In this document: piece after piece, positions 9,468-43,904 of the stretch | How positions within the stretch are numbered: the first letter of the stretch is position 1 | How the letters are laid out: each line of letters begins with the position of its first letter | Virus record (IMG/VR): IMGVR_UViG_3300025035_000013 | Location: 24,627 to 88,626 of that record | Source: a virus | Reading direction: 5' to 3' (one strand) | DNA length: 64,000 nucleotides | The notes under the pieces: generated by a model | Told to the model about the DNA's origin: nothing | What the model saw: the letters and a program-made list of their open reading frames with translations, nothing else | The model's database searches: none | Translations under genes and position numbers: made by a program

Positions 9468-9530
9468 TTTCTTCTCCGTGTTGTTTAATTGATGTATACA
9501 TTATACCACGACTCAATTAAATGTCAAATG
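9468..9530 (-). promoter_or_regulatory. repeated early promoter-RBS cassette
   Basis: TTGACA (9527-9522), 16 nt, TG-n-TATAAT, then GGAG RBS; near-identical at 8 sites. Confidence 0.85.
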
Positions 9531-9548
9531 CCTTAATGAATCAAGCAT

Positions 9549-9639
9549 TTATCTAAACGACCGTCTAGGATGCTGCACCATTCTTGTTGTTTTTGAGTTG
9601 ATGGGTGCATATCGACTGTGTCAAGATAATGGGGCTAAG
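9549..9639. repeat. about 90-bp dispersed repeat, copy 1 (copy 2 at 10483-10572)
   Basis: Direct alignment; copies differ by substitutions and an internal micro-inversion. Confidence 0.85.
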
Positions 9640-9667
9640 CCGCCGCGGGAGAGTACGGTCAATAAGT

Positions 9668-9946
9668 TCATGGAGTAACCATCATAGCCATTCCGGTCAC
9701 TACCACACCCGCAAGAGCGCCGCCTAATAACGTACTGACCTCATCCCGTAAATCTGCCCGGCGGCTAGCAGGGTGGAGGATATCCCACACTTCTTTGAGT
9801 ATCCCGACGTTCGCCGCCGCCAACAGTCCAAGGAGTGCCGCCATCTGCATACTTGTGATGCCTCCCACAATCAGGCCGAGTGCCACCGTAATAGAAATGC
9901 AGTATCCAACAAAAAAGTGAGCCTTGTTATCCATCGATATTTTCAT
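9668..9946 (-). CDS. small GC-richer membrane protein (K-HF...G--KE-WD type)
   Basis: Three hydrophobic segments; DNKAHF and ILKEVWD motifs. Confidence 0.7.
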   Translation of the reverse strand: MKISMDNKAHFFVGYCISITVALGLIVGGITSMQMAALLGLLAAANVGILKEVWDILHPASRRADLRDEVSTLLGGALAGVVVTGMAMMVTP

Positions 9947-10010
9947 TTTATTTCTCCGTATTGTTTAATTGATGTATACATTATACCACGACTCAATTAA
10001 ATGTCAAATG
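9947..10010 (-). promoter_or_regulatory. repeated early promoter-RBS cassette
   Basis: TTGACA 10007-10002, TATAAT, GGAG; matches the 9468 copy. Confidence 0.85.
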
Positions 10011-10081
10011 CCGAAATAAATCAATCACTTAACAATCTTCACTTTAAACCCAAGCAGCGGTTCGATGTCAGCAACGGACAA

Positions 10082-10400
10082 TTACTTTTCAGTCTTCATC
10101 TTTGCATTGAATTCTGCTTCGGTGTATTCTACATCATCCAGATACCAATATTTGGTTCCGAGAACAGATTCAATAGCAGGACCGTCTTCACGATGGCGCC
10201 TACCGTTCAGATACCAGAATTTGCATCCATTGGCAAATTCAGCAGCAGGACCGCCGAGGCCGGGCCAGCAGGCCGTTCAGATACCATTCTTTATCGCCAT
10301 TTGCAGATTCAACCGCAGGGCCGTCTTCACGATGGAGGTTACCATTCAGATACCATTCTTTATCGTCATTATCGTAGAGCTTAACTTCGTTCGGAAGCAT
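10082..10400 (-). pseudogene. HREDGPA repeat gene, copy B, frameshifted
   Basis: MLPNEVKLYDND... first repeat intact; 19-nt GC-rich patch replaces 18 nt of repeat 2 and shifts frame; ends ...MKTEK*. Confidence 0.75.
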
Positions 10401-10464
10401 TTTATTTCCCCGTGTTGTTTAATTGAGGAATACATTATATCACGACACAATTAAATGTCAAACA
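10401..10464 (-). promoter_or_regulatory. repeated early promoter-RBS cassette
   Basis: TTGACA 10461-10456, TATAAT, GGGG RBS variant. Confidence 0.8.
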
Positions 10465-10482
10465 CCTTGATGAATCAATCAC

Positions 10483-10572
10483 TTATCTAAAAGACAGTCT
10501 AGGATGCTGTACCAGTCTCATTGTTTTGAGTTGATATGCACCCATCGACGGTATCAAGATAATGGGGCTAAG
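10483..10572. repeat. about 90-bp dispersed repeat, copy 2
   Basis: Aligns with 9549-9639. Confidence 0.85.
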
Positions 10573-10586
10573 ATGCCTTAGCCCCA
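10563..10586 (-). terminator. hairpin terminator after the ATPase gene
   Basis: TGGGGCTAAG-ATGC-CTTAGCCCCA perfect inverted repeat just after the stop; weak U-tract. Confidence 0.6.
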
Positions 10587-10592
10587 GTTAGG

Positions 10593-11477
10593 TCATCCAT
10601 TTACAGAAAAGTTATATAAACAAGGCCGTTCCCAGTCTTCCCCAAGTGCAACTTTCATCTTGAGAATATTCAAGGCACTTCTGATATTTAAATCTTTTGC
10701 CATTTTCACATGCTTCCTGATAAAATTCAACACATCTATCTTATCCTCGGACTCAAACCTTTCATCTTCATCGAAAATCTGAGCAATTCGTTCTATTTTC
10801 TCGTCCACATTGAGAGTCAAGTCGCATACTATAGAACGGCTCAGAATTGCCTGCGGGAACTTATGCAATTCTAGATTAGAAATGAAAATAATTTTGCCAG
10901 TGAATTCAAAACGACTAGGCACCTCATCATCTTTTGATTCTGCCCCCCAGGAGATAATCCGGCGGTCGGAAGAATCCAATGCAGCTTTTAAAATGCTTGC
11001 ACCAATCGGGTCACGAAAAGCTGTATCGAGGTCATCCAGAACGATTACCTTGCCGTTTTCATGAAAGAGAGTGGTGTACAAGTTGCGGGGAGTAGTATAA
11101 CCCTTCACAAACACGAAGTCACCATCCATAGTGCCGATTGTATCTTCAGTCAATCCCATATCTCGAAGTGCATTTAAAACGGTAAAAGACTTCCCGAGGC
11201 CGCCTGAACCTGTCACCACGAGGCTGGGGATAATACCTTTAGCTGCGAGTTTAGTGAATTGGGTCATGAAGTCGAACCGCTCAGCCACAGTAAATTCGGA
11301 TTTTTTAACTTCAAGCAAAACATCATCATCCACATCAGCTGCTGAAGTCTTGCCGAGTGTTCGAATTTTTGCTTCGAGTTTCTTCTTATCGTTAGATGTA
11401 GCAAGAGTTTTGCCATCTACGATATAAGAATATCGGCCAGTTTTTGAATAGAATTTAATCATGTTTGAGTATTTCAC
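10593..11477 (-). CDS. AAA+/P-loop ATPase
   Basis: Walker A GSGGLGKS, Walker B VIVLDD, sensor-like IIFISN and A-LSRS. Confidence 0.8.
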   Translation of the reverse strand: MKYSNMIKFYSKTGRYSYIVDGKTLATSNDKKKLEAKIRTLGKTSAADVDDDVLLEVKKSEFTVAERFDFMTQFTKLAAKGIIPSLVVTGSGGLGKSFTVLNALRDMGLTEDTIGTMDGDFVFVKGYTTPRNLYTTLFHENGKVIVLDDLDTAFRDPIGASILKAALDSSDRRIISWGAESKDDEVPSRFEFTGKIIFISNLELHKFPQAILSRSIVCDLTLNVDEKIERIAQIFDEDERFESEDKIDVLNFIRKHVKMAKDLNIRSALNILKMKVALGEDWERPCLYNFSVNG

Positions 11478-11531
11478 CGTGTTGTTTAATTGAGGAATAC
11501 ATTATATCACGACTCAATTAAATGTCAAATG
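11478..11531 (-). promoter_or_regulatory. repeated early promoter cassette
   Basis: TTGACA 11528-11523 and TATAAT; same sequence family. Confidence 0.8.
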
Positions 11532-11601
11532 CCGAAATAAATCAATTATTTAACAATCTTTACTTTAAACCGAATATCTTTTCGATGACTGCAACAGACA
11601 A

Positions 11602-12060
11602 TTACTTTGCAGTATTCATCTTTGCATTGAATTCTGCTTCGGTATGCTGTTTACCATCTAGATGCCATTCTTTGGTACCATCATTGTGCACGACGGCAGG
11701 ACCGTCTTCACGATGAAGTTGACCATTTTTATACCATTTTTTATCACCATCAGCATGTTCAACAGCAGGACCATTGTCTCTATGCAATTTGCCATTTTTA
11801 TACCATGCTTGAGTGCCATTAGCATATTTAACAGCAGGACCATTGTCTCGATGCAATTTGTCGTGAATATACCAGTATTTGTTTCCATTAGCATATTTAA
11901 CAGCAGGACCATTGTCTCGATGCAATTTGCCATTCAAATAATATTCTTCGGCGCCATTAGCATATTCAATTGCGGGCCCAGCTTTACGATGTAATTTGCC
12001 ATTCAAATAATATTCTTTGGCATCAGCATATTTTTTCACTTCGTAGTTTTTTGTTGTCAT
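11602..12060 (-). CDS. HREDGPA/HRDNGPA repeat protein, copy C (5 repeats, divergent)
   Basis: Repeat units plus TEAEFNAKMNTAK*. Confidence 0.85.
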   Translation of the reverse strand: MTTKNYEVKKYADAKEYYLNGKLHRKAGPAIEYANGAEEYYLNGKLHRDNGPAVKYANGNKYWYIHDKLHRDNGPAVKYANGTQAWYKNGKLHRDNGPAVEHADGDKKWYKNGQLHREDGPAVVHNDGTKEWHLDGKQHTEAEFNAKMNTAK

Positions 12061-12090
12061 TTTTTCCCCGCGTTATTTAATTGATGTTAT

Positions 12091-12098
12091 TATTTATA
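12091..12098 (-). promoter_or_regulatory. T4 late promoter TATAAATA
   Basis: Exact consensus about 30 nt upstream of the copy C start. Confidence 0.7.
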
Positions 12099-12138
12099 GT
12101 TATTTGATAATAGCTGAATTCAAATAATCATACATAAC

Positions 12139-12495
12139 TTAAAGTGTTATTTTCCAGTTACCTCGTTCGTCTTCTACTAAATTATAATTTCTCTTCCAGA
12201 CCGGCGATAAAGGAGTAAGATAGAGTTCTGGTTTAAACCCAAATTCTATCAACGTCTGGTTAATATGAGGGCGCAATTCTTTGAATCTTCCTTTTCCTCT
12301 CCATTTGCTTTTTGATAATTTCAGTGAATCTCCTGAAAATGCGCCTATCCCATTGAGTTTTACATGTCCTCCACAGACTGTAATATCGATTGGCATATCT
12401 CCAATCCATGCTGTTCCAGTCAATATTGCTTCACATTTAAACTCTATTTTATGGCCAGAAAGTTCAGCAATGCGTCTGAGGATAAGATTCTCCAT
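12139..12495 (-). CDS. hypothetical protein, possible GNAT-like fold
   Basis: WRGKGRFKEL resembles the acetyl-CoA binding R-G-x-G motif; weak. Confidence 0.5.
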   Translation of the reverse strand: MENLILRRIAELSGHKIEFKCEAILTGTAWIGDMPIDITVCGGHVKLNGIGAFSGDSLKLSKSKWRGKGRFKELRPHINQTLIEFGFKPELYLTPLSPVWKRNYNLVEDERGNWKITL

Positions 12496-12948
12496 TTAAG
12501 ATAGCAGAAGTTTGAATTGAGTAGCTGCTTGTTTGCCATCAAACTGTTCACCGTATTTATCTTTGAGTTTCTTCGTGATAACACCCAGTGATTTTTGCTC
12601 CAATTTAAGCCCACATACCCCAATAATAAATTTGACGGCGTCCAGCACTTGACCGGCCGAAATTTTAGTCGGAAGGAATGTTCTAACAATTTCAAGTTCA
12701 TTCAGCGTATGTAAAAACCTTGGGGCAGTAGATGACATGCCATTATCATTCATGTATCCAATTGTGTCAATCATACCCTTTTCAAACCGCTTTAATGTTT
12801 TTAATGTATCATCTGTGACTTCTCTGCGCTCATTTTTGCCAATTATTTCAGTCTCCCCGATAATTGTAGTCAATAAGGAAGATGTTGTAGAATCTTTCGC
12901 TTTTCTAGCAGTAAGTTGAGAATTCTTGCTGTCTTGTAATTTAGTCAT
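12496..12948 (-). CDS. GatB/YqeY domain protein
   Basis: A-KAKD----LL--I-GE...EL-I---FLP--- S pattern of YqeY. Confidence 0.75.
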   Translation of the reverse strand: MTKLQDSKNSQLTARKAKDSTTSSLLTTIIGETEIIGKNERREVTDDTLKTLKRFEKGMIDTIGYMNDNGMSSTAPRFLHTLNELEIVRTFLPTKISAGQVLDAVKFIIGVCGLKLEQKSLGVITKKLKDKYGEQFDGKQAATQFKLLLS

Positions 12949-12987
12949 TTATTGATTGGCATCATAGTAAAATTCTATTCAAAATAC

Positions 12988-13233
12988 TCATGCAGTGAAA
13001 GCATCAGCCATTTTTTTTGTTTTCAATTGTTTCTCGGTCAGAGTAACTTTAACACTGGTGCCATCAGGATTGATGACCTGTGAAATGTCCCATGCATAAA
13101 CCGAGCCAATCTCCGTACAGAATCCTTCTACATTAACCATTCGAATGTTGCCCTTCATGTTATCCATCATAGTACCATACCATCCATTCGCGAGTATAAC
13201 CCTCATACCCTTCTTAATATCGTTCGTAAACAT
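12988..13233 (-). CDS. small hypothetical protein (SH3-like beta pattern)
   Basis: Intact ORF with its own promoter cassette. Confidence 0.7.
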   Translation of the reverse strand: MFTNDIKKGMRVILANGWYGTMMDNMKGNIRMVNVEGFCTEIGSVYAWDISQVINPDGTSVKVTLTEKQLKTKKMADAFTA

Positions 13234-13296
13234 TTTCTTCTCCGTATTGTTTAATTGATGTATACATTATATCACGACTCAATTAAATGTCAAACA
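13234..13296 (-). promoter_or_regulatory. repeated early promoter-RBS cassette
   Basis: TTGACA 13293-13288, TATAAT, GGAG. Confidence 0.85.
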
Positions 13297-13306
13297 CCTA
13301 AATGAA

Positions 13307-13789
13307 TCAAATACTTAGCATATTCATATTGAGTTCAAACTCCGAGCCGAATTTACGAGCAACGACTTTTTTCAGACCTTCTACTGTGTTTGAGCGGCAA
13401 GCAACGACATTATCTTTATAAAACATATACTTCTGATATTTTTCTGAAAACACAACGATATTGTCTTTTCTCATATCTTTAAAGTCAGCTTTTGCCATCT
13501 TTTCGATATGAGTCAACACAGTATCATATTTGGTTTTACACCACGGATATTTTCCCACATGTTCATATACTTTATCTGCTGCCAGAGCAACAATATCATT
13601 CGTATCGATAGATTCATCGATGCTCAATTGAAGACAGTACTTATACAAATATTCGAGTTGATATGCAGCCGCAGAAGCGGGCACTTCAACATTAAATTCT
13701 TTTTTGAGCAACTCACCATACGGAGTAGCTGGGGTAAATGTATATAACTTGCGAATCAATTCAGATTGTGTCATTGCAATTTTCACCAT
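13307..13789 (-). CDS. hypothetical protein
   Basis: Intact ORF downstream of a cassette-type promoter at 13836-13831. Confidence 0.7.
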   Translation of the reverse strand: MVKIAMTQSELIRKLYTFTPATPYGELLKKEFNVEVPASAAAYQLEYLYKYCLQLSIDESIDTNDIVALAADKVYEHVGKYPWCKTKYDTVLTHIEKMAKADFKDMRKDNIVVFSEKYQKYMFYKDNVVACRSNTVEGLKKVVARKFGSEFELNMNMLSI

Positions 13790-13830
13790 GTTGTTTAACT
13801 GATATATATCATATCACTCATCAATTAAAA

Positions 13831-13920
13831 TGTCAAATACCTAGATAAATCAAATACTTATACTTATTATAGACATTAAAAACCCCACCGAAGTGGGGTT
13901 TTACTGTATCATACCTAAAA
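13831..13920. repeat. 90-bp direct repeat (promoter -35, terminator, last HNH codons), copy 1
   Basis: Identical to 14181-14270. Confidence 0.9.
13879..13902 (-). terminator. rho-independent terminator
   Basis: AAAACCCCAC-TTCG-GTGGGG-TTTTT on the minus strand; repeated at 14229-14252. Confidence 0.85.
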
Positions 13921-13924
13921 TTTG

Positions 13925-14125
13925 TTAACCCACCTTAGTATTTTTGAACAACATTGAACAAAGAAATAGGATACCAAGAGCATTCCAAAATCCAATTTCA
14001 TGTACACCGTCAATCGTACCAACAAATGCCGCATTCCACACCCACATCACAGGCAGAGCAAGAACCACAGAGATAATCGCAACCATTGCAATGATTTTCA
14101 AAAGACCTTCGATAATTTTTTTCAT
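13925..14125 (-). CDS. small two-TM membrane protein, copy 1
   Basis: Hydrophobic; near-identical to 14951-15154. Confidence 0.8.
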   Translation of the reverse strand: MKKIIEGLLKIIAMVAIISVVLALPVMWVWNAAFVGTIDGVHEIGFWNALGILFLCSMLFKNTKVG

Positions 14126-14189
14126 TTTATTTCTCCGTGTTATTTAATTGAGGAATACATTATACCACGACTAAATTAAATGTCAAATA
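14126..14189 (-). promoter_or_regulatory. repeated early promoter-RBS cassette
   Basis: TTGACA 14186-14181, TATAAT, GGAG. Confidence 0.85.
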
Positions 14190-14270
14190 CCTAGATAAAT
14201 CAAATACTTATACTTATTATAGACATTAAAAACCCCACCGAAGTGGGGTTTTACTGTATCATACCTAAAA
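14181..14270. repeat. 90-bp direct repeat, copy 2
   Basis: Identical to 13831-13920. Confidence 0.9.
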
Positions 14271-14832
14271 AATGAGGAGCCGCTAAAATTCTTGAATGTT
14301 TCGGCAAGAACCCTCGCAGATAATCCATTTGGTCAGCTAATACTCGTCTGTTTTGCATCAACAATCTTTCAGCATGATTTGGTGTGTACGGAATGTAAAT
14401 CAATTCCATGTCAATCTCGTGTAGTAAATAATCTGCTTTTTCATGATTACATGCTTTACATGCTGAAACTACATTTGTCCACACATTTTTACCTCCCTTT
14501 GAGGTCGGATGAATATGGTCGCACGATAATTTGTGTGAAGGATAATGTCTACCACAATATGCACAAATGTTTAAATCTCTGCTGAATAAATTAGTATTAG
14601 TAAGAGGTGGAATTCTTGTTTCGTATTTGATGGAATCTTTCAAGAATAATATCGGAGCTATATCCACCGCAGACCGTTCTCCAGTAATACGAGAAATGCC
14701 TCCTCTATATCTATTTGAATCCCCAAATTCATAACTCAAGGAGTCTTTAACTTTTAACAGAATAGAAGCTTCCATAGAAGCCCAATATTGTGGTTGACCT
14801 CCTTTGTCACAGACCAGATACTGATGTTTCAT
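14251..14832 (-). CDS. HNH endonuclease (McrA/HNH_5-like)
   Basis: CAYCG...DHIHP-SKGG-N-W-NVV-AC--CN--K. Confidence 0.9.
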   Translation of the reverse strand: MKHQYLVCDKGGQPQYWASMEASILLKVKDSLSYEFGDSNRYRGGISRITGERSAVDIAPILFLKDSIKYETRIPPLTNTNLFSRDLNICAYCGRHYPSHKLSCDHIHPTSKGGKNVWTNVVSACKACNHEKADYLLHEIDMELIYIPYTPNHAERLLMQNRRVLADQMDYLRGFLPKHSRILAAPHFLGMIQ

Positions 14833-14950
14833 TTTTTGCTCCTTTAATCATTTCGTAAATTCTTACAGGAATGACAATAGGCAATAAGCAAACTCTGATG
14901 AATTGGGCAAATCCCCAATAAAATTTCTGATTTGTCGACATTGTTATTCC

Positions 14951-15154
14951 TTATTTGTTAGACGTATTATTTTTGAACAACATTGAACAAAGAAATAGGA
15001 TACCAAGAGCATTCCAAAATCCAATTTCATGTACACCGTCAATCGTACCAACAAATGCCGCATTCCACACCCACATCACAGGCAGAGCAAGAACCACAGA
15101 GATAATCGCAACCATTGCAATGCCCCCCAAAAACATCCCGATATTTTTTTGCAT
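14951..15154 (-). CDS. small two-TM membrane protein, copy 2
   Basis: Core IAMVAII...SMLFKN identical to copy 1. Confidence 0.8.
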   Translation of the reverse strand: MQKNIGMFLGGIAMVAIISVVLALPVMWVWNAAFVGTIDGVHEIGFWNALGILFLCSMLFKNNTSNK

Positions 15155-15238
15155 TTCATTCCTTTCCTTTAATAATCAATGATGATTGCCATTTTAACAA
15201 CGGTAGAATAATTGTCAAATTTTTGCTAAAAAGAATAA

Positions 15239-15508
15239 TTAAACTCGAGTATTCCATTTTTCTATGCATTCGTCACGCGAGTCGCCATAAATTTCCGCGC
15301 CGCACCCGCCTGCCACTACAGGGCAGTTGTAAGTCCAGCACTTATTATCCTCACTTTTTCTATCCTCAAATGAAATGTAATGTTTAATGCCATCCTCTAT
15401 CCTCCAATAAAGCCCGTTAGGGTATAATGTTTCATTATCTAAAACATCTGAAGGTCTTCCGCAAAATGGACACGATTTTTGCTTTTTTGTAGACATGAAT
15501 TCTTCCAT
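15239..15508 (-). CDS. Lar-family restriction alleviation-like zinc protein
   Basis: CPFCG...C---GGCG...WN-R pattern. Confidence 0.65.
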   Translation of the reverse strand: MEEFMSTKKQKSCPFCGRPSDVLDNETLYPNGLYWRIEDGIKHYISFEDRKSEDNKCWTYNCPVVAGGCGAEIYGDSRDECIEKWNTRV

Positions 15509-15524
15509 TTAATGTAACAATTAA

Positions 15525-15878: not shown

Positions 15879-15883
15879 AATTT

Positions 15884-15953
15884 TGGAATCCCCAATAGGC
15901 ATCGAACCTATCCTATTTCTTTAGGAAAGAAATGTCTGTCCATCAGTGAGGAT
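15884..15953 (-). tRNA. tRNA-Arg(CCT) with miniature D-arm
   Basis: Acceptor ATCCTCA/TGGGGAT, loop TTCCTAA, T-loop TTCGATG, CCA; D region only CTGATGGACAG. Confidence 0.65.
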
Positions 15954-16252: not shown

Positions 16253-16328
16253 TGGTGCCCGGTGTCAGACTCGAACTGACATGCTGTCACTTGTAGGGAG
16301 ACCGATTGAACCTTTCATCTACCCGGGC
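16253..16328 (-). tRNA. tRNA-Val(TAC)
   Basis: Cloverleaf, loop CCTACAA, TTCGAGT, CCA. Confidence 0.85.
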
Positions 16329-16333
16329 ATTAT

Positions 16334-16556: not shown

Positions 16557-17008
16557 TTATGCATAACCGTAAACTTCTGTAAAGTTTACTTTTGCTAAAC
16601 GCTTCATCAAAGATGCCAAATTTTGGTGCAGAACACTATAATCGGGACTAACTGCTTCTCTGCGTTTGTAATCGACTAATTCGGCCGATGTTAAGGAATA
16701 AAGGTCACGAAGGCCCTCATCCAGAATGTTGTTTGCTGCATTTACATCTCTATCATGCTCAGCACTACAAGATGGACAAATCCATTCCCTAATGTCGAGC
16801 GGCAAAGACTCTACCTTATGACCACAGCAGTTGCAAGTTTTAGAAGATGGGAAAAAAGTATCAATTTTGGTAAATGTTTTACCGTACCAATTGGACTTAT
16901 ACTCAAGCTGACGCACCAATTCCGACCATGAAGCATCGTGAATTGATTTTGCCAAGTTATGATTTTTAACCATGTTCTTTACTTTTAAAATACTTTAAAT
17001 GATTTCAT
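16557..17008 (-). pseudogene. tnpB: internally deleted TnpB (IS200/IS605/IS607-type) relic
   Basis: RBS plus MKSFKV start (17008) joined out of frame to LKVKNM..; C-terminus has L-YK--W, PSSK-C--CG, W-C--C---HDRD-NAA-NI. Confidence 0.85.
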
Positions 17009-20186: not shown

Positions 20187-20227
20187 CCACCTAACAATCA
20201 TATCAAGTTTCGATTTAATTGTCAAAT
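20187..20227 (-). promoter_or_regulatory. sigma70-type promoter, 41-bp repeat copy 2
   Basis: TTGACA-17-TATGAT; a third promoter (TTGACA 20344-20339, TATAAT) lies upstream. Confidence 0.8.
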
Positions 20228-20426
20228 TTATTTATCAATCAATGATTTGGCGAAATTTCATCCAATTCATTATGAAACAAATTGATTCACCAAAACATTT
20301 AAATCGACATAATCAATTATATAGATTTTTAATTAATTGTCAAATGTCTAATAAAAACAACAATTTACCCCTTTGACAACCTCGCGAGGATGTCAAAGTA
20401 AACAATAAAAGTACTCATGCTTACGT

Positions 20427-23469: not shown

Positions 23470-24384
23470 TCAAAATCTGATGTTAGGATTGCCAACCTGA
23501 AAAACTTTAAGCCCCATTGCTCTCCAGTTATCACACACGCTAGGCCTATCATCGATAACGAATTGACAATTGTAATTCGGAGCAATATCTCTCCAGAAAA
23601 TTTCCTCTTTCACAACTGTATCTTTTCTCATATCACCTGTTGCTCGCATGAGTAACGTATCAAAAAAAATGTCATTATAATCGAGCCACTTTTCTGTTTC
23701 TGGTCTACAGATGCCATCTCTCCCAGAAAGAATTATAACAGTATCTTCCACTGGCATGTTATTTACCAAAAACTTTACTTGTTCATCACAATCATCCAGC
23801 CCGACTTTATCCCATTCAAACGCCCCGCGCTTACCATTCATGTGAGCCAATGTTCCATCTACATCAACCAAGATAGCCCTTGGTTTTGTGACGTCTGCAA
23901 CATACTGCCGAGTACTTGGAAATTCTTTAGTAAATTGTTCATACTGCTTCCAAATAACCTGATGACCGACAGTATCGCGGCGGCGCTCGTCACGCTTAAT
24001 TGCTTCCATCACATCAATATGGAAGACTTTGAACTCAACAGTATATCCAAGTTCTTCAAGTTTTGTATGCAGCAGTGACCGATATTTAATATTCAAATTC
24101 GTATCACCAATAATGATGTTTGCTTTCATCTTTGCGCAGTCATCAATTATTTCATTCACCATTTCAGTGACTTTGTTTTCATTTTCTTTTGTGAATTTCC
24201 AGAGGGACCAGAAGTTATCGCTAGAATTATCATCATCAAATCCAAGCAGGCGCTTGCGCATAATATCACGTTCAATTCTAACGAAGTAATCATATTCCCG
24301 CTTTGCAATTTCGGTGGTTTTGCCCGACCCCGAAATACCAATTGCAATAATAGCCCTTTTCACGTATTTCTCCTCGTACCACAT
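23470..24384 (-). CDS. pseT: polynucleotide 5'-kinase / 3'-phosphatase (T4 PseT)
   Basis: P-loop GISGSGKT and HAD motifs DVDGT, SGR, DDR. Confidence 0.92.
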   Translation of the reverse strand: MWYEEKYVKRAIIAIGISGSGKTTEIAKREYDYFVRIERDIMRKRLLGFDDDNSSDNFWSLWKFTKENENKVTEMVNEIIDDCAKMKANIIIGDTNLNIKYRSLLHTKLEELGYTVEFKVFHIDVMEAIKRDERRRDTVGHQVIWKQYEQFTKEFPSTRQYVADVTKPRAILVDVDGTLAHMNGKRGAFEWDKVGLDDCDEQVKFLVNNMPVEDTVIILSGRDGICRPETEKWLDYNDIFFDTLLMRATGDMRKDTVVKEEIFWRDIAPNYNCQFVIDDRPSVCDNWRAMGLKVFQVGNPNIRF

Positions 24385-24447
24385 TTATCGATATAATCAT
24401 TAAAACACATGCTGATAAAATGTCAAATGTCTATACAAACCAATGAC

Positions 24448-24735
24448 TTATGCTGCATAGGGCTGAAGTTCAAAAATGAATGAACTGTCGGCATCGATCC
24501 GAATATTCGTGACTTTACGCCCATTCAACAAAGAACCGACTGAAATGAATGGACCTCCAGATGGGTCCACAAATCCCAAATCATTTGTGTCAATTTCAGC
24601 CTGCCCGTCTTTACCACCATATCTCCAGTGTTTCAAGTCACCTACTATTTTAAACTCATCATTGTTAATTTTTTGAAAAGAATACTCAACTCCCTCGCGA
24701 TTTTTCATTGGTCGACCTCCTTGTGATGACGGCAT
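24448..24735 (-). CDS. small hypothetical protein
   Basis: GGAGG RBS before MKNREG; GFVDPSGGPFI motif. Confidence 0.65.
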   Translation of the reverse strand: MPSSQGGRPMKNREGVEYSFQKINNDEFKIVGDLKHWRYGGKDGQAEIDTNDLGFVDPSGGPFISVGSLLNGRKVTNIRIDADSSFIFELQPYAA

Positions 24736-27660: not shown

Positions 27661-27758
27661 GATTTAATTATTTCTCACCATATCAACCATATTACTATGA
27701 TAATATTGATACATTTAATTGTCAAATGTAATGATAAATCAATCACTTACAACCATCG

Positions 27759-28168: not shown

Positions 28169-28196
28169 TTGGACTCCATTTCAAAGTAATTAATAA

Positions 28197-28430
28197 TTAC
28201 CTTCTTTAATAGATTAATCTTTACCTTCTTTAATAGATAGGATTAATTAATTCTTTACCTTCTTTAATTGATTAATCTTTACCTTCTTTAATTGATTAAT
28301 TCTTTACCTTCTTTAATTAATTAATTCTTTACCTTCTTTAATTGATTAATTCTTTACCTTCTTTAATTAATTAATTCTTTACCTTCTTTAATTGATTAAT
28401 TCTTTACCTTCTTTAATTGATTAATCTAAT
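28197..28430. repeat. AT-rich tandem array of nine ~25-bp units (TCTTTACCTTCTTTAATTRATTAAT)
   Basis: Core TTACCTTCTTTAAT at 28197, 28221, 28255, 28279, 28304, 28329, 28354, 28379, 28404. Confidence 0.95.
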
Positions 28431-32285: not shown

Positions 32286-32395
32286 TTTTACACCTCACTT
32301 TCTGCTCTATAAGCTATCAAATTTAACATCATGCCCCATCTTATTATCATAACCAACATTATTTTAAATGTCAAACTGTCAAATGAATCAACAAC

Positions 32396-33784
32396 TTAGT
32401 CGAAATTTATGCTGGCAAAGTCATGTGTTTTCTTGGATTTGCCGAATAACTCATCATCTGTAATGCCTTGGTCGGAGACTGTTTGTTGTTGGGATTCTTC
32501 TACATCAGATAATTTAAATTTCCTTATATCAACACCAATGAGGAATTTGTTATAATAATTTATGTCATTGTATCTACTCTTCAACTGTTTAATCATCAGC
32601 TGATTCATTTTGTCCAATTCTTCGGTGCGTATAATACCTATGAAGAAATCTAAAGATGCCGGCAAACCAAACGATTCCGATGTATCTGTCATACTGAAAT
32701 CCGAATCATTGAATCCTGTTCTGGTAAGTTGAGTGGCCGTCCAGCCAACACAGTTATATTCCACCATCAATCCTCTTAGTTCTTCTGCGATTGCTTTGAT
32801 AGCAAAATAAGAATTGTAATTGCTGCTCTTATATTTCTGTGATGCACAAATATTGATATAATCAATACAAATAACATCTGGGAGAAAATTCTTTTTGAGT
32901 TTCAGTTCTTCCAATAATGCCCTAAAGTGCCCAACATGAGCACCACCAGTAGGGTATTCTTTAATTATTAGTTGTCCACGAGTCTTGGATTTAATGCCAG
33001 TAACTCCATCGATAAAATCATCTTTGTTCAATCTACCTAAATTATCAACATCGATGTCAAGTAGATTGCAGTCTATGCGTTCTGCTATCTTTTCTTGCGC
33101 CATCTCCAGCGTGACATACAACACATTGAAGCCTTGACTTAATGATGTTGCTGCCATATCACACAGGAAAAGTGATTTACCTACCCCTACCCCTGCTAGA
33201 ACAGCGTTTAGTGTCTTGCGAGGAATACCATTCTTAGTAACTTTATTAAAATACGACAGTCTGAATGGAATCTTATCTTCTTTTAAATGATAAAAATCAA
33301 AACGAGATTCCATATCATCAAAGAAGTCATGCCCTACACTATTATCAAATGATACCGCCAGTGCATCTTGCATCAAGGATGGCATAGCTTCCACTGACAA
33401 TTTTGAGTCTTTCCCATCCATTGCTTGAATTGTAGTCATGACAGCATTATAGAATGCTTTATCTTTACAAAACTTCTCTGTCCTGCCGATGAGCCAGTCT
33501 ACATTTTCTTCTTTGCCGTTCAATTCCTTCACAAACAATTCTGCTTGAATATATTCTTCTTGAGTAAAAGAAGAATATTCCTTTGATAATAATCCTAAAA
33601 TCTTTTGATTAGGTGCTTTATTATGTTTTTCAGCAAATACGGTAATGAATTTGAACAGTGTCTTTTCTATTTTTGTACTAAAATATTCCTCTTTTAAATG
33701 AGGAAATACTTTCCTAAAATAATCATCATTATTAATCAAATTTTCCAATACAATATTTTCAATTTTTAATTCCATCAGTACCAC
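32396..33784 (-). CDS. gp41: replicative helicase (T4 gp41)
   Basis: AGVGVGKS Walker A, TLEM, IKEYPT, IDY, TATQLTR, ESFGLP. Confidence 0.95.
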   Translation of the reverse strand: MVLMELKIENIVLENLINNDDYFRKVFPHLKEEYFSTKIEKTLFKFITVFAEKHNKAPNQKILGLLSKEYSSFTQEEYIQAELFVKELNGKEENVDWLIGRTEKFCKDKAFYNAVMTTIQAMDGKDSKLSVEAMPSLMQDALAVSFDNSVGHDFFDDMESRFDFYHLKEDKIPFRLSYFNKVTKNGIPRKTLNAVLAGVGVGKSLFLCDMAATSLSQGFNVLYVTLEMAQEKIAERIDCNLLDIDVDNLGRLNKDDFIDGVTGIKSKTRGQLIIKEYPTGGAHVGHFRALLEELKLKKNFLPDVICIDYINICASQKYKSSNYNSYFAIKAIAEELRGLMVEYNCVGWTATQLTRTGFNDSDFSMTDTSESFGLPASLDFFIGIIRTEELDKMNQLMIKQLKSRYNDINYYNKFLIGVDIRKFKLSDVEESQQQTVSDQGITDDELFGKSKKTHDFASINFD

Positions 33785-38512: not shown

Positions 38513-38607
38513 AATTATCTCCCTGTTATTATTTTAAACCATGTCAAGCCAACAATCAAATTATTTTGATTTGTGAATCTTTGGAGGAAGAATAATAACT
38601 CAATTAC

Positions 38608-39171
38608 TCACAGCCCATTATCTTTGAAATGCTTATTGATTACTTCAAATGCAACAGGCGTATAATTATTCCTTTCTACAGATACGTTGAAGTACTTAGG
38701 GTCGTCGATTTCAGTCCAGACCGGTGAACCATGTTCTAAAGAAAATAATTGCTTCTTCACAGTTCCAGAATGTAAATGCCCATGCACGTTACTCCTCCAC
38801 CTGCTTAGACTTCCTGGGTGGATTGGAATGTGGCTCAAATGAATCCTGTCTAGCATGTGACAAGACCTAACATCTTTAAAGTACTGATTATAAGCTGACA
38901 TCTTCAAACTATCGTGATTTCCTTTAATGAGGACTTTTGCGCCATTCAATCTTGGCATGACATTATGAAAGTGAGTAGCACCAAAACACACATCTCCCAA
39001 GAAATAAACTGTATCATTTGGCCCAACAACTGAATTATGATTATTAACCATAGTCTCGTCCATCTCTTCACACGAGTCAAATGTCCTCAAATTTGAACCA
39101 TCCTCGTTTAAAAATGAGAGGATGTTACAATGGCCAAAGTGTTGGTCTGCAATTAGAAAAGTGTCACTCAT
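38608..39171 (-). CDS. calcineurin-like phosphoesterase
   Basis: D-HFGH, LGD, KGNHD, SH-P, HGH-H. Confidence 0.85.
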   Translation of the reverse strand: MSDTFLIADQHFGHCNILSFLNEDGSNLRTFDSCEEMDETMVNNHNSVVGPNDTVYFLGDVCFGATHFHNVMPRLNGAKVLIKGNHDSLKMSAYNQYFKDVRSCHMLDRIHLSHIPIHPGSLSRWRSNVHGHLHSGTVKKQLFSLEHGSPVWTEIDDPKYFNVSVERNNYTPVAFEVINKHFKDNGL

Positions 39172-39775
39172 TTATTGCTCCTTTTGTAATCTCTTTTATT
39201 ACTTTTGTTATGTCGCTTTGAAACTCATCTATTGTACCATTATTGAAAATTACAAAATCGATGTACTTTTCATCTAACGTGATATTGGACGCGTGATTGA
39301 CTGCTCCGTTTATTTTATTATCAGAATCGAATTTATTATCGTCGCGAATAATATGGACAATAAATCCCCCCAAATCTTTTACTCTTTTAGCCTCATTCTC
39401 AAAACGTAAATCAGTATTGACAACAGATTGTCCTTTATTCCATGCATGCTCTATTCCTTCTTGGGCCAAATCGACCCATACGGAATCTTTAATTAATACT
39501 CTGCCCCATTCAGTACCTAGAGTTTGCGCCATGTATCTGATACTTCGCTCAAATTTATAATGGGCGGAATTTTTGATATTTGGGTTCTCAATGTCTTCCA
39601 TCGGGATATTGAACATCGCCGAGAGTCCTCGTTTAATTGGGGCGGCAAATGATACTTTTGACCAATTACCACCATCTCGGATAAGATGATTTGCAAATGT
39701 GTCTTTACCAGACCCAGGTAAACCGTGGCAAGCAATGAGAATATGGGGCAATTTATCTTTATTATCAGCGCACAA
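39164..39775 (-). CDS. deoxynucleoside monophosphate kinase (gp1-like)
   Basis: G--GSGKDT, SFA-PIK, Q-LGTE-GR, D-RF-NE, H-S. Confidence 0.85.
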   Translation of the reverse strand: MCADNKDKLPHILIACHGLPGSGKDTFANHLIRDGGNWSKVSFAAPIKRGLSAMFNIPMEDIENPNIKNSAHYKFERSIRYMAQTLGTEWGRVLIKDSVWVDLAQEGIEHAWNKGQSVVNTDLRFENEAKRVKDLGGFIVHIIRDDNKFDSDNKINGAVNHASNITLDEKYIDFVIFNNGTIDEFQSDITKVIKEITKGAINE

Positions 39776-39804
39776 AATTTCTACCCCCAGCTAGAAATTT
39801 CATT

Positions 39805-40182
39805 TTATTCCTTTACAATCTTCACTTTAAAACCAAGTAGGTTTTCGATGTCAGCAACAGACAATTCCTTTACAGGATGCATCTTTGCATTGAATTCTGC
39901 TTCGGTACATATTACACCATTCAGATACCAGAAATTGTCTCCATTAGCAAATTCAATCGCCGGGCCGTCTTCATGCCGCAGTTTATCGTTCAGATACCAG
40001 TGTTTATCTCCATTAGCAAATTCAATCGCCGGGCCGTCTTCTCGATGGCGTTTACCGTTCAGGTACCAGTATTTGTTTCCGTCGACATATTCAGCAGCAG
40101 GGCCGTCTTCACGGTGCAATTTACCGTTCAGGTACCAATAAATGTCGCCATTATCATGAACCTTAACTTCGTATGTTTTCAT
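39805..40182 (-). CDS. HREDGPA repeat protein, copy D (3 repeats plus ELSVADIE tail)
   Basis: Repeat units visible in the translation. Confidence 0.85.
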   Translation of the reverse strand: MKTYEVKVHDNGDIYWYLNGKLHREDGPAAEYVDGNKYWYLNGKRHREDGPAIEFANGDKHWYLNDKLRHEDGPAIEFANGDNFWYLNGVICTEAEFNAKMHPVKELSVADIENLLGFKVKIVKE

Positions 40183-40183
40183 T

Positions 40184-40630
40184 TTATTCCTTTACAATCT
40201 TCACTTTATACCCAAGTAGCTTTTCGATGTCAGCAACAGACAATTCTTTTTCTGGATTGAGCATTGCATTAAATTCTGCTTCGGTGTATCTTATATCATC
40301 TAGATACCAGTATTTGTTTCCGTCGACATATTCAATCGCCGGGCCGTCTTCACGATGGCATTTACCGTTCAGATACCAGAATTTATCTCCATTGGCGTAT
40401 TCAGCAGCAGGGCCGTCTTCACGATGCAGTTTACCATTCAAAAACCAATGTTTGTTTCCATTAGCAAGTTCTACTGCAGGGCCGTCTTCACGATGCAGTT
40501 TACCATCTTTGAACCAGATTTTGTTTCCATTGGCAAGTTCAATTGCAGGGCCGTCTTCACGATGCAATTCACAATTCAGATACCAATAAATGCCGCCATC
40601 ATCATTAATCTTGATTTCGTATGGTTTCAT
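40184..40630 (-). CDS. HREDGPA repeat protein, copy E (4 repeats plus tail)
   Basis: Repeat units visible. Confidence 0.85.
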   Translation of the reverse strand: MKPYEIKINDDGGIYWYLNCELHREDGPAIELANGNKIWFKDGKLHREDGPAVELANGNKHWFLNGKLHREDGPAAEYANGDKFWYLNGKCHREDGPAIEYVDGNKYWYLDDIRYTEAEFNAMLNPEKELSVADIEKLLGYKVKIVKE

Positions 40631-40870
40631 CTATTCCTTTACAATTTTCACTTTAAAACCGAGTAGGTTTTCGATGTCAGCAACAGACAATTCCTTCACA
40701 GGATGCATCTTTACATTGAATTCTGCTTCGGTGCATTCTACCCCATTCAGACACCAATGTTTATCTCCAGTAGCATATTCAATCGCCGGGCCGGCTTCAC
40801 TGTGAAGTTTACCATTCAGATACCAGAATTTGGTGCCATTACCATGAACCTTGACTTCGTATGTTTTCAT
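40631..40870 (-). CDS. HREDGPA repeat protein, copy F (1 repeat plus tail)
   Basis: MKTYEV start at 40870. Confidence 0.8.
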   Translation of the reverse strand: MKTYEVKVHGNGTKFWYLNGKLHSEAGPAIEYATGDKHWCLNGVECTEAEFNVKMHPVKELSVADIENLLGFKVKIVKE

Positions 40871-40871
40871 T

Positions 40872-41387
40872 TTAGTCCTTAACAATTTTCACGTTATACC
40901 CAAGTAGGTTTTCGATGTCAGCAACAGACAATTCCTTCACAGGATGCATCTTTGCATTGAATTCTGCTTCGGTGTATTCTAAACCATTCAGATACCAGAA
41001 TTTATCTCCATTGGAAAGTTCTATGGCAGGGCCGGCTTCACGATGGCATTTACCATTCAGATACCAGAATTTGGAACCATCAGCATATTCAGCAGCAGGA
41101 CCGTCTTCACGATGGCGTGTATCGTTCAGATACCAGTATTTGTTTCCATTAGCAAGTTCAACAGCAGGGCCGTCCTCACGATGGCGTTTACCGTTCAGGC
41201 ACCAGAATTTGTTTCCATTGGCACTTTCAATCGCAGGACCGTCTTCACGGTGGCGCTTATCGTTCAGATACCAATATTTGTTTCCATTAGCAAGTTCAAC
41301 AGCCGGACCGTCCTCACGATGTTGTTTACCATTCATGTACCAGAATTTGTCACCATTGTCTTGCACTTTAACTTCGTATGTTTTCAT
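40872..41387 (-). CDS. HREDGPA repeat protein, copy G (5 repeats plus tail)
   Basis: Repeat units visible. Confidence 0.85.
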   Translation of the reverse strand: MKTYEVKVQDNGDKFWYMNGKQHREDGPAVELANGNKYWYLNDKRHREDGPAIESANGNKFWCLNGKRHREDGPAVELANGNKYWYLNDTRHREDGPAAEYADGSKFWYLNGKCHREAGPAIELSNGDKFWYLNGLEYTEAEFNAKMHPVKELSVADIENLLGYNVKIVKD

Positions 41388-41388
41388 T

Positions 41389-41766
41389 TTATTCCTTTAC
41401 AATCTTCACTTTATACCCAAGTAGGTTTTCGATGTCAGCAACAGACAATTCCTTCACAGGATGCATCTTTGCATTGAATTCTGCTTCGGTGTATTCTAAA
41501 CCATTCAGATACCAGAATTTATCTCCATTGGAAAGTTCTATGGCAGGGCCGGCTTCACGATGGCATTTACCATTCAGATACCAGAATTTGGAACCATCAG
41601 CATATTCAGCAGCAGGACCGTCTTCACGATGGCGTGTATCGTTCAGATACCAGTATTTGTTTCCATTAGCAAGTTCAACAGCAGGGCCGTCTTCACGATG
41701 GTGTTCACCATTCAGGTACCAGTGGGTGGTGCCATTACCATGAACCTTGACTTCGTATGTTTTCAT
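41389..41766 (-). CDS. HREDGPA repeat protein, copy H (3 repeats plus tail)
   Basis: 3' 281 bp identical to copy G. Confidence 0.85.
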   Translation of the reverse strand: MKTYEVKVHGNGTTHWYLNGEHHREDGPAVELANGNKYWYLNDTRHREDGPAAEYADGSKFWYLNGKCHREAGPAIELSNGDKFWYLNGLEYTEAEFNAKMHPVKELSVADIENLLGYKVKIVKE

Positions 41767-41780
41767 TTTGTTTTATCCAA

Positions 41781-43049
41781 TTATTTAATTTCTTCAAATT
41801 TAGACGTGATATCTTTATCAAATCTAATATCAACAAACCTAGGCAAAAACAGACTATATTGTTTAGTATTCTTATCAGTGATTAGTTGATTATAAAGAAT
41901 CTCCATAATTTCACCAATATATTTCTTATCAAAAAACATCCTCCGCTGGTCATCTGAAAATCCAGAACCTACATTGCCTTTGATGAGTCCGTCATCAGTA
42001 GAATATTCAAATGCGCCGAGCATCCCGGCATATTTACCCGTGCCTTCGATTATCTCAGTAATTCGCACTTCAATACTCTCTACCGCCTTCATTTTACCAA
42101 TCCCCTTTACTCGTTTTGGTTCCCATGTCTGTTTGATGTTCTTCATCATGGCGCCCTCGTGCCCGTGTGAAATACATTCCTCAAACATTTTTTGCGCTTC
42201 TTCAGGAGAATTTATGCTGCGGGTCTCAGCAAGTATAATCATATTGTGATTTAGCGCTTTCGACATTGCCTCGGTGAGAGTTTGCAATCTCACATCATAA
42301 GGAATTTTGCTAGTAACATCAACAATGTCCCATGCCACCATACGGATACTATCTGCCTCTTCTTTAGTAATTGTTCCCTTATTGGCTTTGCTGATTATAC
42401 CATTCCCGGTCTTTCTATCAATAATCTTGCCATCTCGCACGATGAGCAATTCACCATCAATCGTAACGCACTCAGCACCAAATGCACTTTGCATCTGGGA
42501 ATCAAATACTCCTAGTGTCTGAATTTCCTTGCCATTTCTGGACCAAGCTGATGCTTTTGTGCCATCCCAAATTAAATGACATCTTGCACCATCGAATTTA
42601 ATTTGCCCAATACAAGGGTATTTGATTCCAGAAATATCTTTGTGCGCTAACATCACATCGAATACAGGCACGATGCCAGGCCACACTCGCGCGGCTAGTG
42701 TATCACTTGTTCCACATCGAAGGTCCCGTTGAATTACTCGCTCCAATACAATTGCAGAGGCAGGAGACAGCCTGGAAAGTATATTTGAAAGATATTGAAT
42801 TGCTTGATTGCCAGTATATTTTCTAGTAGAGAAAACCGTCAATTCATCGATTGCTTTATCTAAACTGATTTTGGTGACATACTCGGTGTATTCAGGAATT
42901 TTTTTAATGCCGTATGTGAGTGTTTTATCATACGCTGCTTGAAATACTCGCTTCAGTACCTTATTATCTTTCTCTCGTTCTAAAATTTTAACTTTATCAT
43001 TCGTTGAAGGAGTAGATGTCAGTTCATTCAAAATATCAAGAATACTCAT
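41781..43049 (-). CDS. gp30: ATP-dependent DNA ligase (T4 gp30)
   Basis: KFDGAR, DGEL, WD, EG-M-K, K-K, VGSGFSD, LFLPRF. Confidence 0.93.
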   Translation of the reverse strand: MSILDILNELTSTPSTNDKVKILEREKDNKVLKRVFQAAYDKTLTYGIKKIPEYTEYVTKISLDKAIDELTVFSTRKYTGNQAIQYLSNILSRLSPASAIVLERVIQRDLRCGTSDTLAARVWPGIVPVFDVMLAHKDISGIKYPCIGQIKFDGARCHLIWDGTKASAWSRNGKEIQTLGVFDSQMQSAFGAECVTIDGELLIVRDGKIIDRKTGNGIISKANKGTITKEEADSIRMVAWDIVDVTSKIPYDVRLQTLTEAMSKALNHNMIILAETRSINSPEEAQKMFEECISHGHEGAMMKNIKQTWEPKRVKGIGKMKAVESIEVRITEIIEGTGKYAGMLGAFEYSTDDGLIKGNVGSGFSDDQRRMFFDKKYIGEIMEILYNQLITDKNTKQYSLFLPRFVDIRFDKDITSKFEEIK

Positions 43050-43089
43050 TTTAAGCCCTTTTCCATCATCTAGATGTATGATACATCAA

Positions 43090-43464
43090 TCACTTAACAA
43101 TCTTTACTTTACATCCAAGTAACTTTTCGATGTCAGCAACAGACAATTCCTTTACAGTATTCATCTTTGCATTGAACTCTGCTTCGGTGTATTCTACACC
43201 ATTCAACAACCAATAGTTGTCTCCATTAACATATTCCACAGCAGGGCCGTCTTCACGATGGCGCTTACCGTTCAGAAACCAGAATTTGTCTCCATTAGCA
43301 AATTCAATCGCCGGGCCGTCTTCGCGGTGATTTTTACCGTTCATACACCAGTATTTGTCTCCATTAGCAAATTCAATCGCCGGCCCGTCTTCGCGGTGAT
43401 GTTTACCGTTCAGGTACCAATAAATGTCGCCATTTTCATGAACCTTGACTTCGTATGTTTTCAT
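43090..43464 (-). CDS. HREDGPA repeat protein, copy I (3 repeats plus tail)
   Basis: MKTYEV start at 43464 behind a promoter cassette. Confidence 0.85.
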   Translation of the reverse strand: MKTYEVKVHENGDIYWYLNGKHHREDGPAIEFANGDKYWCMNGKNHREDGPAIEFANGDKFWFLNGKRHREDGPAVEYVNGDNYWLLNGVEYTEAEFNAKMNTVKELSVADIEKLLGCKVKIVK

Positions 43465-43520
43465 TTTCTTCACCATGTTGTTTAATTGATGTATATCACG
43501 ACTCAATTAAATGTCAAATG
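43465..43520 (-). promoter_or_regulatory. repeated early promoter cassette (variant -10 and RBS)
   Basis: TTGACA 43517-43512; same family with a small deletion. Confidence 0.7.
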
Positions 43521-43534
43521 ACCAAATGAATCAA

Positions 43535-43840
43535 TCACTTAACAACCTTCACTTTAAAACCGAGTAGTTTTTCGATGTCAGCAACAGATAATTCCTTCGC
43601 AGGATGCATCTTTGCATTGAATTCTGCTTCGGTGTATTCTACCCCATTCAGATACCAGTAGTTGTCTCCATTAGCATATTCCACAGCAGGACCGTCTTCA
43701 CGGTGAAGTTTACCAGCTTTGAACCAGACTTTGTCTCCATTAGCATATTCAATCGTTGAGCCGTCTTCGCGGTTCCGCTTGCCGTTCAGATACCAGAATT
43801 TGTTTCCATTAGCATGAACCTCGACTTCGTATGTTTTCAT
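43535..43840 (-). CDS. HREDGPA repeat protein, copy J (2 repeats plus tail)
   Basis: Repeat units visible. Confidence 0.85.
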   Translation of the reverse strand: MKTYEVEVHANGNKFWYLNGKRNREDGSTIEYANGDKVWFKAGKLHREDGPAVEYANGDNYWYLNGVEYTEAEFNAKMHPAKELSVADIEKLLGFKVKVVK

Positions 43841-43904
43841 TTTGTTTCTCCGTGTTGTTTAATTGATGTATACATTATACCACGACTCAATTAAATGTCA
43901 AATG
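43841..43904 (-). promoter_or_regulatory. repeated early promoter-RBS cassette
   Basis: TTGACA 43901-43896, TATAAT, GGAG; matches the 9947 copy. Confidence 0.85.

Follow-up and report, generated by a model that had tools for sequence, protein, structure and literature searches.

Near-identical early-type promoter cassettes and a displaced gene module in the accessory arrays of an uncultured T4-like phage

The window analysed here is a stretch of 64,000 nucleotides (nt) of viral DNA, the reverse strand of bases 9373-73372 of the 98.7-kilobase (kb) IMG/VR virus record IMGVR_UViG_3300025035_000013, a contig estimated to be ~57% complete. Its source is an uncultured T4-like phage from aquifers and groundwater, and our subject is a repeated promoter element of this phage, termed cassette in the following, behind which lie genes of mostly unknown or accessory function. 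We consider it probable (about 65%) that these early-type cassettes of ~88 nt were amplified and homogenised in this lineage and that crossovers at the cassettes moved gene modules in the manner of the promoter early stem-loop elements (PeSLs) of the phages RB49 and phi1. Cassette copies, the genes behind them and the stem-loops given with coordinates below are all located on the minus strand of the window.

The unit was defined by alignment of the copies together with their flanks and by an nhmmer profile search of the contig. It extends over ~88 nt (83-88 nt in the profile), from a 13-nt upstream motif to the ATG, and is thus longer than the ~60 bp given in a preliminary description of this DNA. 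The order of its parts is the upstream motif (TAAGTGATTGATT or a close variant), 12 nt, TTGACA, a 16-nt spacer ending with TGn, TATAAT, a leader of ~30 nt, GGAG and ATG, with the upstream motif sitting at a fixed distance of 12 nt ahead of the -35 box. This motif contains one stop codon per frame (TAA, TGA and TGA). It had been described as holding the stop codon of the previous gene, and this is indeed the case, since it provides the actual stop of the preceding open reading frame (ORF) in at least two different frames: repeat genes ending with KVKIVK terminate at the second stop, and the third is used by a gene encoding 155 amino acids (aa) and by one gene outside the window. Seven of the window copies reach the maximal hexamer score of 12/12 (TTGACA, 16-nt spacer, TGnTATAAT), one is degenerate and one has its -10 box deleted. 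The cassette promoter is predicted to be of the extended -10 type read by the host sigma-70 polymerase, presumably active early. The -10 box is flanked by an inverted repeat of 9-10 bp (TTTAATTGA / TCAATTAAA); because compensatory changes in this repeat were looked for across the copies and none were found, we treat it only as a possible, operator-like protein site.

The 28-nt core of the cassette (-35, 16-nt spacer, -10) matches the window eight times with at most 3 mismatches, always on the minus strand, with -35 boxes starting at 9527, 10007, 10461, 11528, 13293, 14186, 43517 and 43901. In 100 dinucleotide shuffles of the window, the same search at up to 3 mismatches returned 0 matches. The eight positions reported in the preliminary description (9468, 9947, 10401, 11478, 13234, 14126, 43465 and 43841) are correct, because they equal the plus-strand positions just upstream of the downstream ATG. 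Altogether nine copies are present in the window, and three more are found in the contig past the window's right end (base 64000), giving a total of 12. In the profile search of the contig, 11 strong copies scored 59-86 bits and one degenerate copy (13781-13860) 44 bits, and all other sites remained at 17 bits or below. The mean pairwise identity among the copies is 84% and the maximum 98%, and every copy is co-directional with the genes. The copies are real, but they do not separate accessory genes in a continuous run across the region: within the window they form two clusters, array A with seven copies (9466-14210) and array B with two (43463-43927), and a third cluster with three copies lies beyond 64000. 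The profile search found no strong copy between 14211 and 43462, a stretch of ~29 kb that contains replication genes and tRNAs.

Evidence for exchange comes from three relatives (the short contigs L081, L082 and L084), which were reached via homologues of a 289-aa AAA-type ATPase encoded in array A and which show 66-78% protein identity to the window (L081 alone 70-78%). The gene order in the window is 155-aa gene, cassette, 81-aa gene, 150-aa gene, 118-aa gene, repeat gene, cassette, ATPase, a segment termed T, cassette, repeat gene. L081 contains the end of a repeat gene followed by a 157-aa gene, promoter P1, ATPase, T segment, promoter P2, 81-aa-like gene, 118-aa gene, promoter P3, two repeat genes and an RNA ligase gene. 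The ATPase precedes the 81-aa-like and/or 118-aa genes in L082 and L084 as well, whereas the window places it after them. The nucleotide matches between L081 and the window (184-693 with 13775-13266, 649-1808 with 11545-10387 and 1730-2004 with 13293-13024) switch inside cassettes: the copy at 11470-11554 aligns with P1, the copy at 10401-10486 is orthologous to P2, and both P1 and P2 align to the 28-nt core of the copy at 13232-13319. According to a four-way alignment, cassette 10461 is the counterpart of P2 up to the first codons (MLPNE in the window, MLTND in L081), past which the window, unlike L081, continues into a repeat gene. The module of ATPase and T segment is, as judged from these alignments, displaced relative to the block from the 81-aa to the 118-aa gene, with all three junctions in cassettes. 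Such a module move would be expected from excision and re-insertion, or from unequal exchange, between co-oriented cassettes. A gene order fixed across relatives had been named in advance as the observation that would speak against exchange; at 66-78% identity the order is not fixed, and the ATPase module has moved. Relatives also differ from the window in the gene content of the cassette places, whereas the RNA ligase-gp59-gp32 and RNaseH-to-ligase blocks are conserved.

A second difference ending in a cassette is located next to the DNA ligase gene. In L010, the ligase of which is 75% identical, genes for a PD-(D/E)XK nuclease and a ClpP-like protein are followed by the ligase gene directly behind one ordinary promoter. 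The window carries at the matching site an insert of ~1.1 kb consisting of a truncated repeat gene, cassette, repeat gene, cassette and repeat gene. At the left edge of this insert, at 44147-44178, the 3' end of a cassette (leader and Shine-Dalgarno (SD) sequence, 20-30 nt) survives as a remnant that is joined directly to the stop codon of the ClpP-like gene.

In L081, L082 and L084, the promoters at matching places can still be recognised as homologous to the cassette, although they score only 5-19 bits; in common with the cassette they have the upstream motif, TTGACATTTAAT, TATAATG and TACAT. They are much more diverged from one another than the window copies are, which makes the near-identity in the window lineage a derived state that arose by amplification and/or gene conversion. 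Other searches for relatives contributed little: L068-L070, reached through RNA ligase homologues, are too distant and contain no cassette or repeat genes near the RNA ligase, and scanning viral contigs with the RNA ligase and rIIA as queries brought up no relatives.

Traces of recombination are also present among the window copies themselves. The stretches 9937-10223 and 43831-44117 are 93% identical over 287 nt; in both, the truncated tail of a repeat gene ends at the same premature stop and a cassette comes next. A third, more diverged (85%) copy of the tail precedes cassette 11528. These three tails with cassette lead into unrelated genes, encoding a 92-aa membrane protein, a repeat protein and the AAA ATPase. 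Similarly, the T segment with a cassette and the first 4-5 codons is found after two unrelated genes, the AAA gene and the 92-aa gene, and the 81-aa gene and the 201-aa repeat gene, though unrelated, agree in their cassette and in the initial 14 nt of the ORF. The unit of a 67-aa gene, terminator and cassette is duplicated in tandem (13781-14134 and 14130-14270 plus 14965-15163; 13781-13920 and 14130-14270 are 89% identical), the first copy being interrupted by an HNH endonuclease gene. In the alignment of the cassettes, 67 of 105 informative site pairs show all four combinations in the four-gamete test, which excludes a tree-like history of the copies.

Taken together, these past events, which can be read from the comparison of sequences, are consistent with the following scenario. 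Related phages have the promoter architecture in diverged form at matching places; in the window lineage, duplication and gene conversion would have multiplied the copies and kept them similar, for the most part along with the family of HREDGPA-repeat genes described below. Each cassette would start strong transcription by the host polymerase as well as translation of the accessory gene behind it, and the three-frame stop would close any reading frame arriving from the left. In a phage with T4-type recombination, the copies would represent long co-oriented patches of homology, and crossovers within or at the edge of cassettes would have moved, duplicated and inserted modules of a cassette with its gene or genes, as proposed for PeSLs. 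The recombination pathway would be general homologous recombination, by which mini-circles might form and exchange might still be going on.

Several observations weigh against this reading. An all-vs-all comparison of the minus-strand ORFs revealed a family with 11 members in the window and at least 17 in the contig, the proteins of which consist of 23-residue HREDGPA (MORN-like) repeats and typically start with MKTYE and end with KVKIVK; some members are frameshifted or truncated. Family loci are 8862-9467, 10001-10400, 11602-12060, 39805-41766 and 43090-44149, and outside the window contig bases 6569-9165. The cassette might be the native promoter and leader of this family that was passively copied, so that the repeat genes are the recombination substrate and shuffling does not depend on the cassettes in any particular way. 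A family member indeed adjoins nine of the 12 cassettes on one side or the other. Furthermore, cassettes are 77-95% identical and adjacent paralogous coding sequences 66-89%; since the cassette identity is only moderately higher, part of the similarity reflects a duplication history common with the gene family. The upstream flank that cassettes have in common lies outside the cassette and is largely the 3' end of a family gene. About 20 near-identical contigs from many samples have the same gene order without cassette-bounded differences, and the structural variants in near-identical strains are all located inside repeat-gene ORFs. The data show just as well that the repeat genes, too, serve this phage as strong substrates of recombination. 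The documented events comprise one clear transposition and a few insertions and duplications, and the ancestral gene order is deduced from the three short contigs L081, L082 and L084. Finally, breakpoints in intergenic promoters are in part what one would expect from the survival of viable genomes, since almost all intergenic DNA of the array is cassette. Passive copying with the family nevertheless appears rather unlikely to us as the whole explanation: P1 of L081, a cassette homologue, is located between the 157-aa gene and the AAA gene, neither of which belongs to the family, the move of the AAA module has three breakpoints in cassettes, six cassettes precede non-family genes, and the tandem family array at 39805-41766 is mostly without cassettes. 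More than 7,000 homologues of the repeat proteins exist, but they are uninformative on the cassette because they are located in unrelated phages.

The variants in near-identical strains also bear on the question of whether metagenome assembly produced the repeats or their arrangement artificially, for example through a chimeric or collapsed contig. Breaks at cassettes are seen in Logan contigs and in several IMG contigs, and L071 and L072 connect distant loci through paralogs: both join the repeat gene behind the ligase to distant repeat genes, and both switch inside ORFs, in stretches of ~30 nt common to paralogs. The loci concerned in L071, L072 and L073 (see below) are window 41263-41772, window 9140 and contig base 7011. 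We rejected these two joins as proof of in vivo recombination since the shared stretches are only ~30 nt and the join in L072 would remove essential genes; the contigs may represent true recombinants, defective genomes or chimeras made by the assembler. Array A, however, is found with conserved gene order in assemblies that are independent and stem from different archives and different samples (L065 100%, L066 99.99% and L067 99.6% identical), so that its arrangement is not an assembly artefact, and in most contigs with the ligase gene array B has the structure described here. An artefact is therefore hardly credible. The remaining strain variants are differences of whole 69-nt repeat units (1, 3, 5 or 6), including array A and the third cluster, and a deletion of 517 nt between two tandem repeat genes in L073. 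Exact-pattern scans of IMG/VR and of metagenome contigs found only near-identical strains of the third cluster beyond the window (L009, L033, L044, L056 and L061), differing by multiples of the 69-nt unit within repeat genes. Contigs from three DNA runs and one RNA run, compared with 8500-15300, break at cassettes and are uninformative on circles and cassette-cassette junctions, none of which were seen; their joints fall in repeat genes or have short sides, and loose contig ends at 10031 and 11473 are explained by other cassette copies mapping across.

It could also be argued that the copies are alike only because each position is needed for the function of the promoter or of a regulator, by selection or convergence and without recent copying or recombination. 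The fixed distance of 12 nt between motif and -35 in non-cassette promoters too, the inverted repeat bracketing the -10 box and the general promoter architecture kept in relatives would fit this idea. But far more diverged versions serve the relatives at matching sites, non-functional flanks such as the pseudogene tail with its premature stop were duplicated together with the cassettes, and the variants are mosaic, with the incompatible site pairs reported above. Thus, functional constraint as the sole cause is very unlikely. A more far-reaching proposal, which we regard as improbable and put forward only tentatively, is that the cassette is a maintained plug-and-play adaptor composed of the three-frame stop, the motif and -10 palindrome as possible binding sites for a phage or host factor, the perfect promoter and the ribosome site. 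Active gene conversion would keep its copies identical, and the neighbouring HNH or PD-(D/E)XK nucleases might stimulate this process. If true, the phage would possess an integrase-free, integron-like platform for capturing, expressing and reordering accessory genes, including the large library of HREDGPA-repeat genes.

How close the crossover-driven system that we favour comes to PeSLs can be judged from the published examples. PeSLs of RB49 and phi1 are elements of ~100 bp consisting of a stem-loop, an AT-rich stretch, a near-perfect sigma-70 early promoter, an SD sequence and an ATG; they are found mostly in hyperplastic regions ahead of ORFans, most gene differences between the two phages are associated with them, small circles can form, and crossovers were mapped between -10 and the ATG or first codons (Arbiol, Comeau & Krisch 2010, PMC2839356). 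The cassettes resemble them in the near-consensus promoter, AT-rich upstream part, SD and ATG, in the conservation over ~90-100 bp, in the occurrence of many co-oriented copies in variable, hyperplastic regions before ORFans, with differences between relatives ending in the elements, and in the placement of crossovers between -10 and the first codons. They differ in having an unrelated sequence, copies that are much more alike, stops in three frames and a tight link to one large paralog family. Mini-circles have been shown for RB49/phi1, whereas none were seen in the assembled contigs of public runs compared here, which break at the repeats.

Later work applied the PeSL concept to T4/PST and KVP40/nt-1, in which the sequences are specific to the lineage and "half" elements exist (Comeau, Arbiol & Krisch 2014, PMC4122927). 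These PeSL and PmSL elements are similar to the cassettes in that each lineage has its own sequence, half or degraded elements occur and clusters mark zones of insertion, deletion or displacement; however, their promoters are off consensus, while both hexamers are perfect here, stem-loops are regular there, and a linkage to a gene family is not described for them (PMC4122927).

In our phage, GC-rich GGGG..CCCC stem-loops are found upstream of copies 14186, 13836 and 10461 only (free energy, dG, -15.7 to -19.7), with a decayed one upstream of copy 9527, hence at 3-4 of the 12 copies; the other 8 have none. Since the stem-loop is not a regular part, the cassettes are not strict members of the PeSL class but a PeSL-like system without obligatory stem-loop, a variant of the PeSL kind. 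In all other features that could be examined, the cassettes conform to PeSLs. An analogy to PeSLs with a different sequence had been suggested preliminarily, and this agrees with our data: the architecture is as published, and a blastn search with one cassette against 50,697 phage records gave no match. A megablast of 9000-15000 against records of cultured phages likewise returned nothing related, and Rfam contained no family matching the cassette, the terminators giving only sub-threshold RsmY-like matches. Of the further suggestion that such a system captures and rearranges genes, rearrangement is borne out by the comparison with relatives, although near-identical strains keep their gene order; foreign genes may have been captured by the same route.

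Early promoters of T4 are read by the host sigma-70 polymerase, are conserved beyond both hexamers and are located ahead of non-essential early genes. They are similar to one another, but in the cassettes near-identity covers 88 nt and extends to the spacer, the leader and the ribosome site. Another parallel is offered by integron gene cassettes, being arrays of small accessory genes split by a repeated junction element, in which modules are gained, lost and reordered. In contrast to integrons, there is no integrase and no attC-like folded site here, each unit carries its own promoter, and exchange would proceed by general homologous recombination.

PeSL shuffling has been documented in few cultured phage pairs, and the present case would extend it to an uncultured, environmentally abundant clade of T4-like phages. 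It offers an unusually clean example in three respects: the near-identical cassettes in one lineage as opposed to diverged promoters at the same sites in relatives, a module displacement with every breakpoint in cassettes, and the large number of public metagenomes and metatranscriptomes from aquifers that could be screened for junction reads and transcription starts. In addition, it suggests that the stem-loop is dispensable, and it connects promoter cassettes with the growth of a family of repeat proteins. The cassette may also serve as a compact strong promoter and ribosome-binding part with a built-in three-frame stop, as predicted from its sequence.

The genes served by the individual copies in array A are diverse. 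The copy at 9466-9552 (83.4 bits, 0 core mismatches) would drive the 201-aa HREDGPA-repeat gene at 8862-9467, and the copy at 9947-10033, which is flanked upstream by what is left of the 3' end of a truncated repeat gene, the gene of the 92-aa membrane protein (9668-9946). Behind the AAA gene and the T segment, the copy at 10401-10486 precedes a frameshifted repeat gene (10001-10400), and the copy at 11470-11554 the 289-aa ATPase gene (10593-11462, phrog_1250). The copy at 13232-13319, at the breakpoint between the 155-aa gene and the block from the 81-aa to the 118-aa gene, is followed by the 81-aa gene (12988-13233), and the degenerate copy (-10 box TATGAT) by the 155-aa gene (13307-13774). 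The last copy of the array, 14126-14210, precedes a 66-aa membrane protein gene (13925-14125), which is a duplicate of 14951-15154. The idea that the region is built of units of one cassette and one ORF applies to some of these units, but others contain several genes, such as the four-gene module at 11602-13233 between two cassettes (81 aa, 150 aa and YqeY-like, 118 aa, and a 152-aa repeat gene). Homologues of its 81-aa and 118-aa genes lie downstream of the AAA gene in relatives. Contigs from one metatranscriptome library of an aquifer cover several cargo genes of array A, at 9642-9871, 10485-11502, 11900-12270, 12826-13193 and 14581-14882; DNA carry-over is possible for these, and gaps in the RNA cover carry no meaning.

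Two of the stem-loops have clear duplicates or remnants. A terminator-like GGGG..CCCC stem-loop at 10563-10586, ~100 nt upstream of cassette 10461, has a decayed copy at 9631-9641. The CCCC..GGGG stem-loop at 14229-14252, followed by a T run (dG -15.7) and situated upstream of cassette 14186, has an identical duplicate at 13879-13902 upstream of cassette 13836; both types might function as terminators. The free-standing HNH endonuclease gene (14251-14832; Pfam HNH_5, 7.9e-15) separates the first copy of the 67-aa membrane-protein gene from the terminator and cassette that belong to it, and L082 and L084 contain homologous HNH genes on the same side of the array.

In array B, the copy at 43841-43927 (86 bits, 0 mismatches) precedes a 101-aa repeat gene (43535-43840). 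The copy at 43463-43543, ahead of an intact 124-aa repeat gene (43090-43464) and the ligase gene, has a 7-nt deletion between short TATA repeats and is absent from the promoter-like sites; its promoter is probably dead or weak, because the deletion removes the -10 box. The 57-aa truncated repeat gene at 43976-44149 has the same premature stop as 10001-10400. At 43050-43095, the 13-nt upstream motif is present after the 124-aa repeat gene, yet no promoter lies between it and the DNA ligase gene, which in L010 has a promoter of its own. In the array at 39805-41766, five HREDGPA-repeat genes follow each other in tandem without cassettes between them, with stop and start codons 1-2 nt apart.

Eight looser relatives of the element had been listed in the preliminary description, and of these only the site at 13831 is a true cassette, the degenerate copy with 44 bits; the seven others are ordinary promoters. 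The sites at 24422, 27720, 32370, 49172 and 50952 have only the upstream motif and/or TTGACAtTTAA in common with the cassette (6-17 bits), 26337 only TTGACAtTTAA without a match to the upstream motif (5.9 bits), and 15213 is a generic sigma-70-like site. By their sequence, the looser sites other than 13831 and 15213 can be assigned to a general class of early promoters. An example on the minus strand is 27711-27750, which has the upstream motif 12 nt before TTGACA and is otherwise different, and further sites of the class are located near 20199-20250, 24383-24450, 32364-32399 and 50945-50982.

The assignment of the phage is based on its gene content. From ~5046 upward, nearly all genes of the window are on the minus strand; they encode rIIA, a gp41-type helicase, a primase, a split family-B DNA polymerase, an ATP-dependent DNA ligase and two RNA ligases, and gp59, gp32 and rIIB were recognised by Pfam marks. 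This T4-type set of replication and recombination genes identifies the phage as a T4-like myovirus. The gp41-type helicase is at best 53% identical to that of any cultured phage, and DNA of the same phage was found in many metagenomes from aquifers, groundwater and hot springs. The window contains 13 tRNA genes. Adjoining the tRNA cluster is a 138-aa ORF (16557-16973) that, in the gene table of the identical contig L065, bears the Pfam mark Cas12f1-like_TNB, which denotes a fragment of a TnpB-type zinc ribbon, and self-comparison of the window revealed an AT-rich tandem repeat array at 28184-28425.

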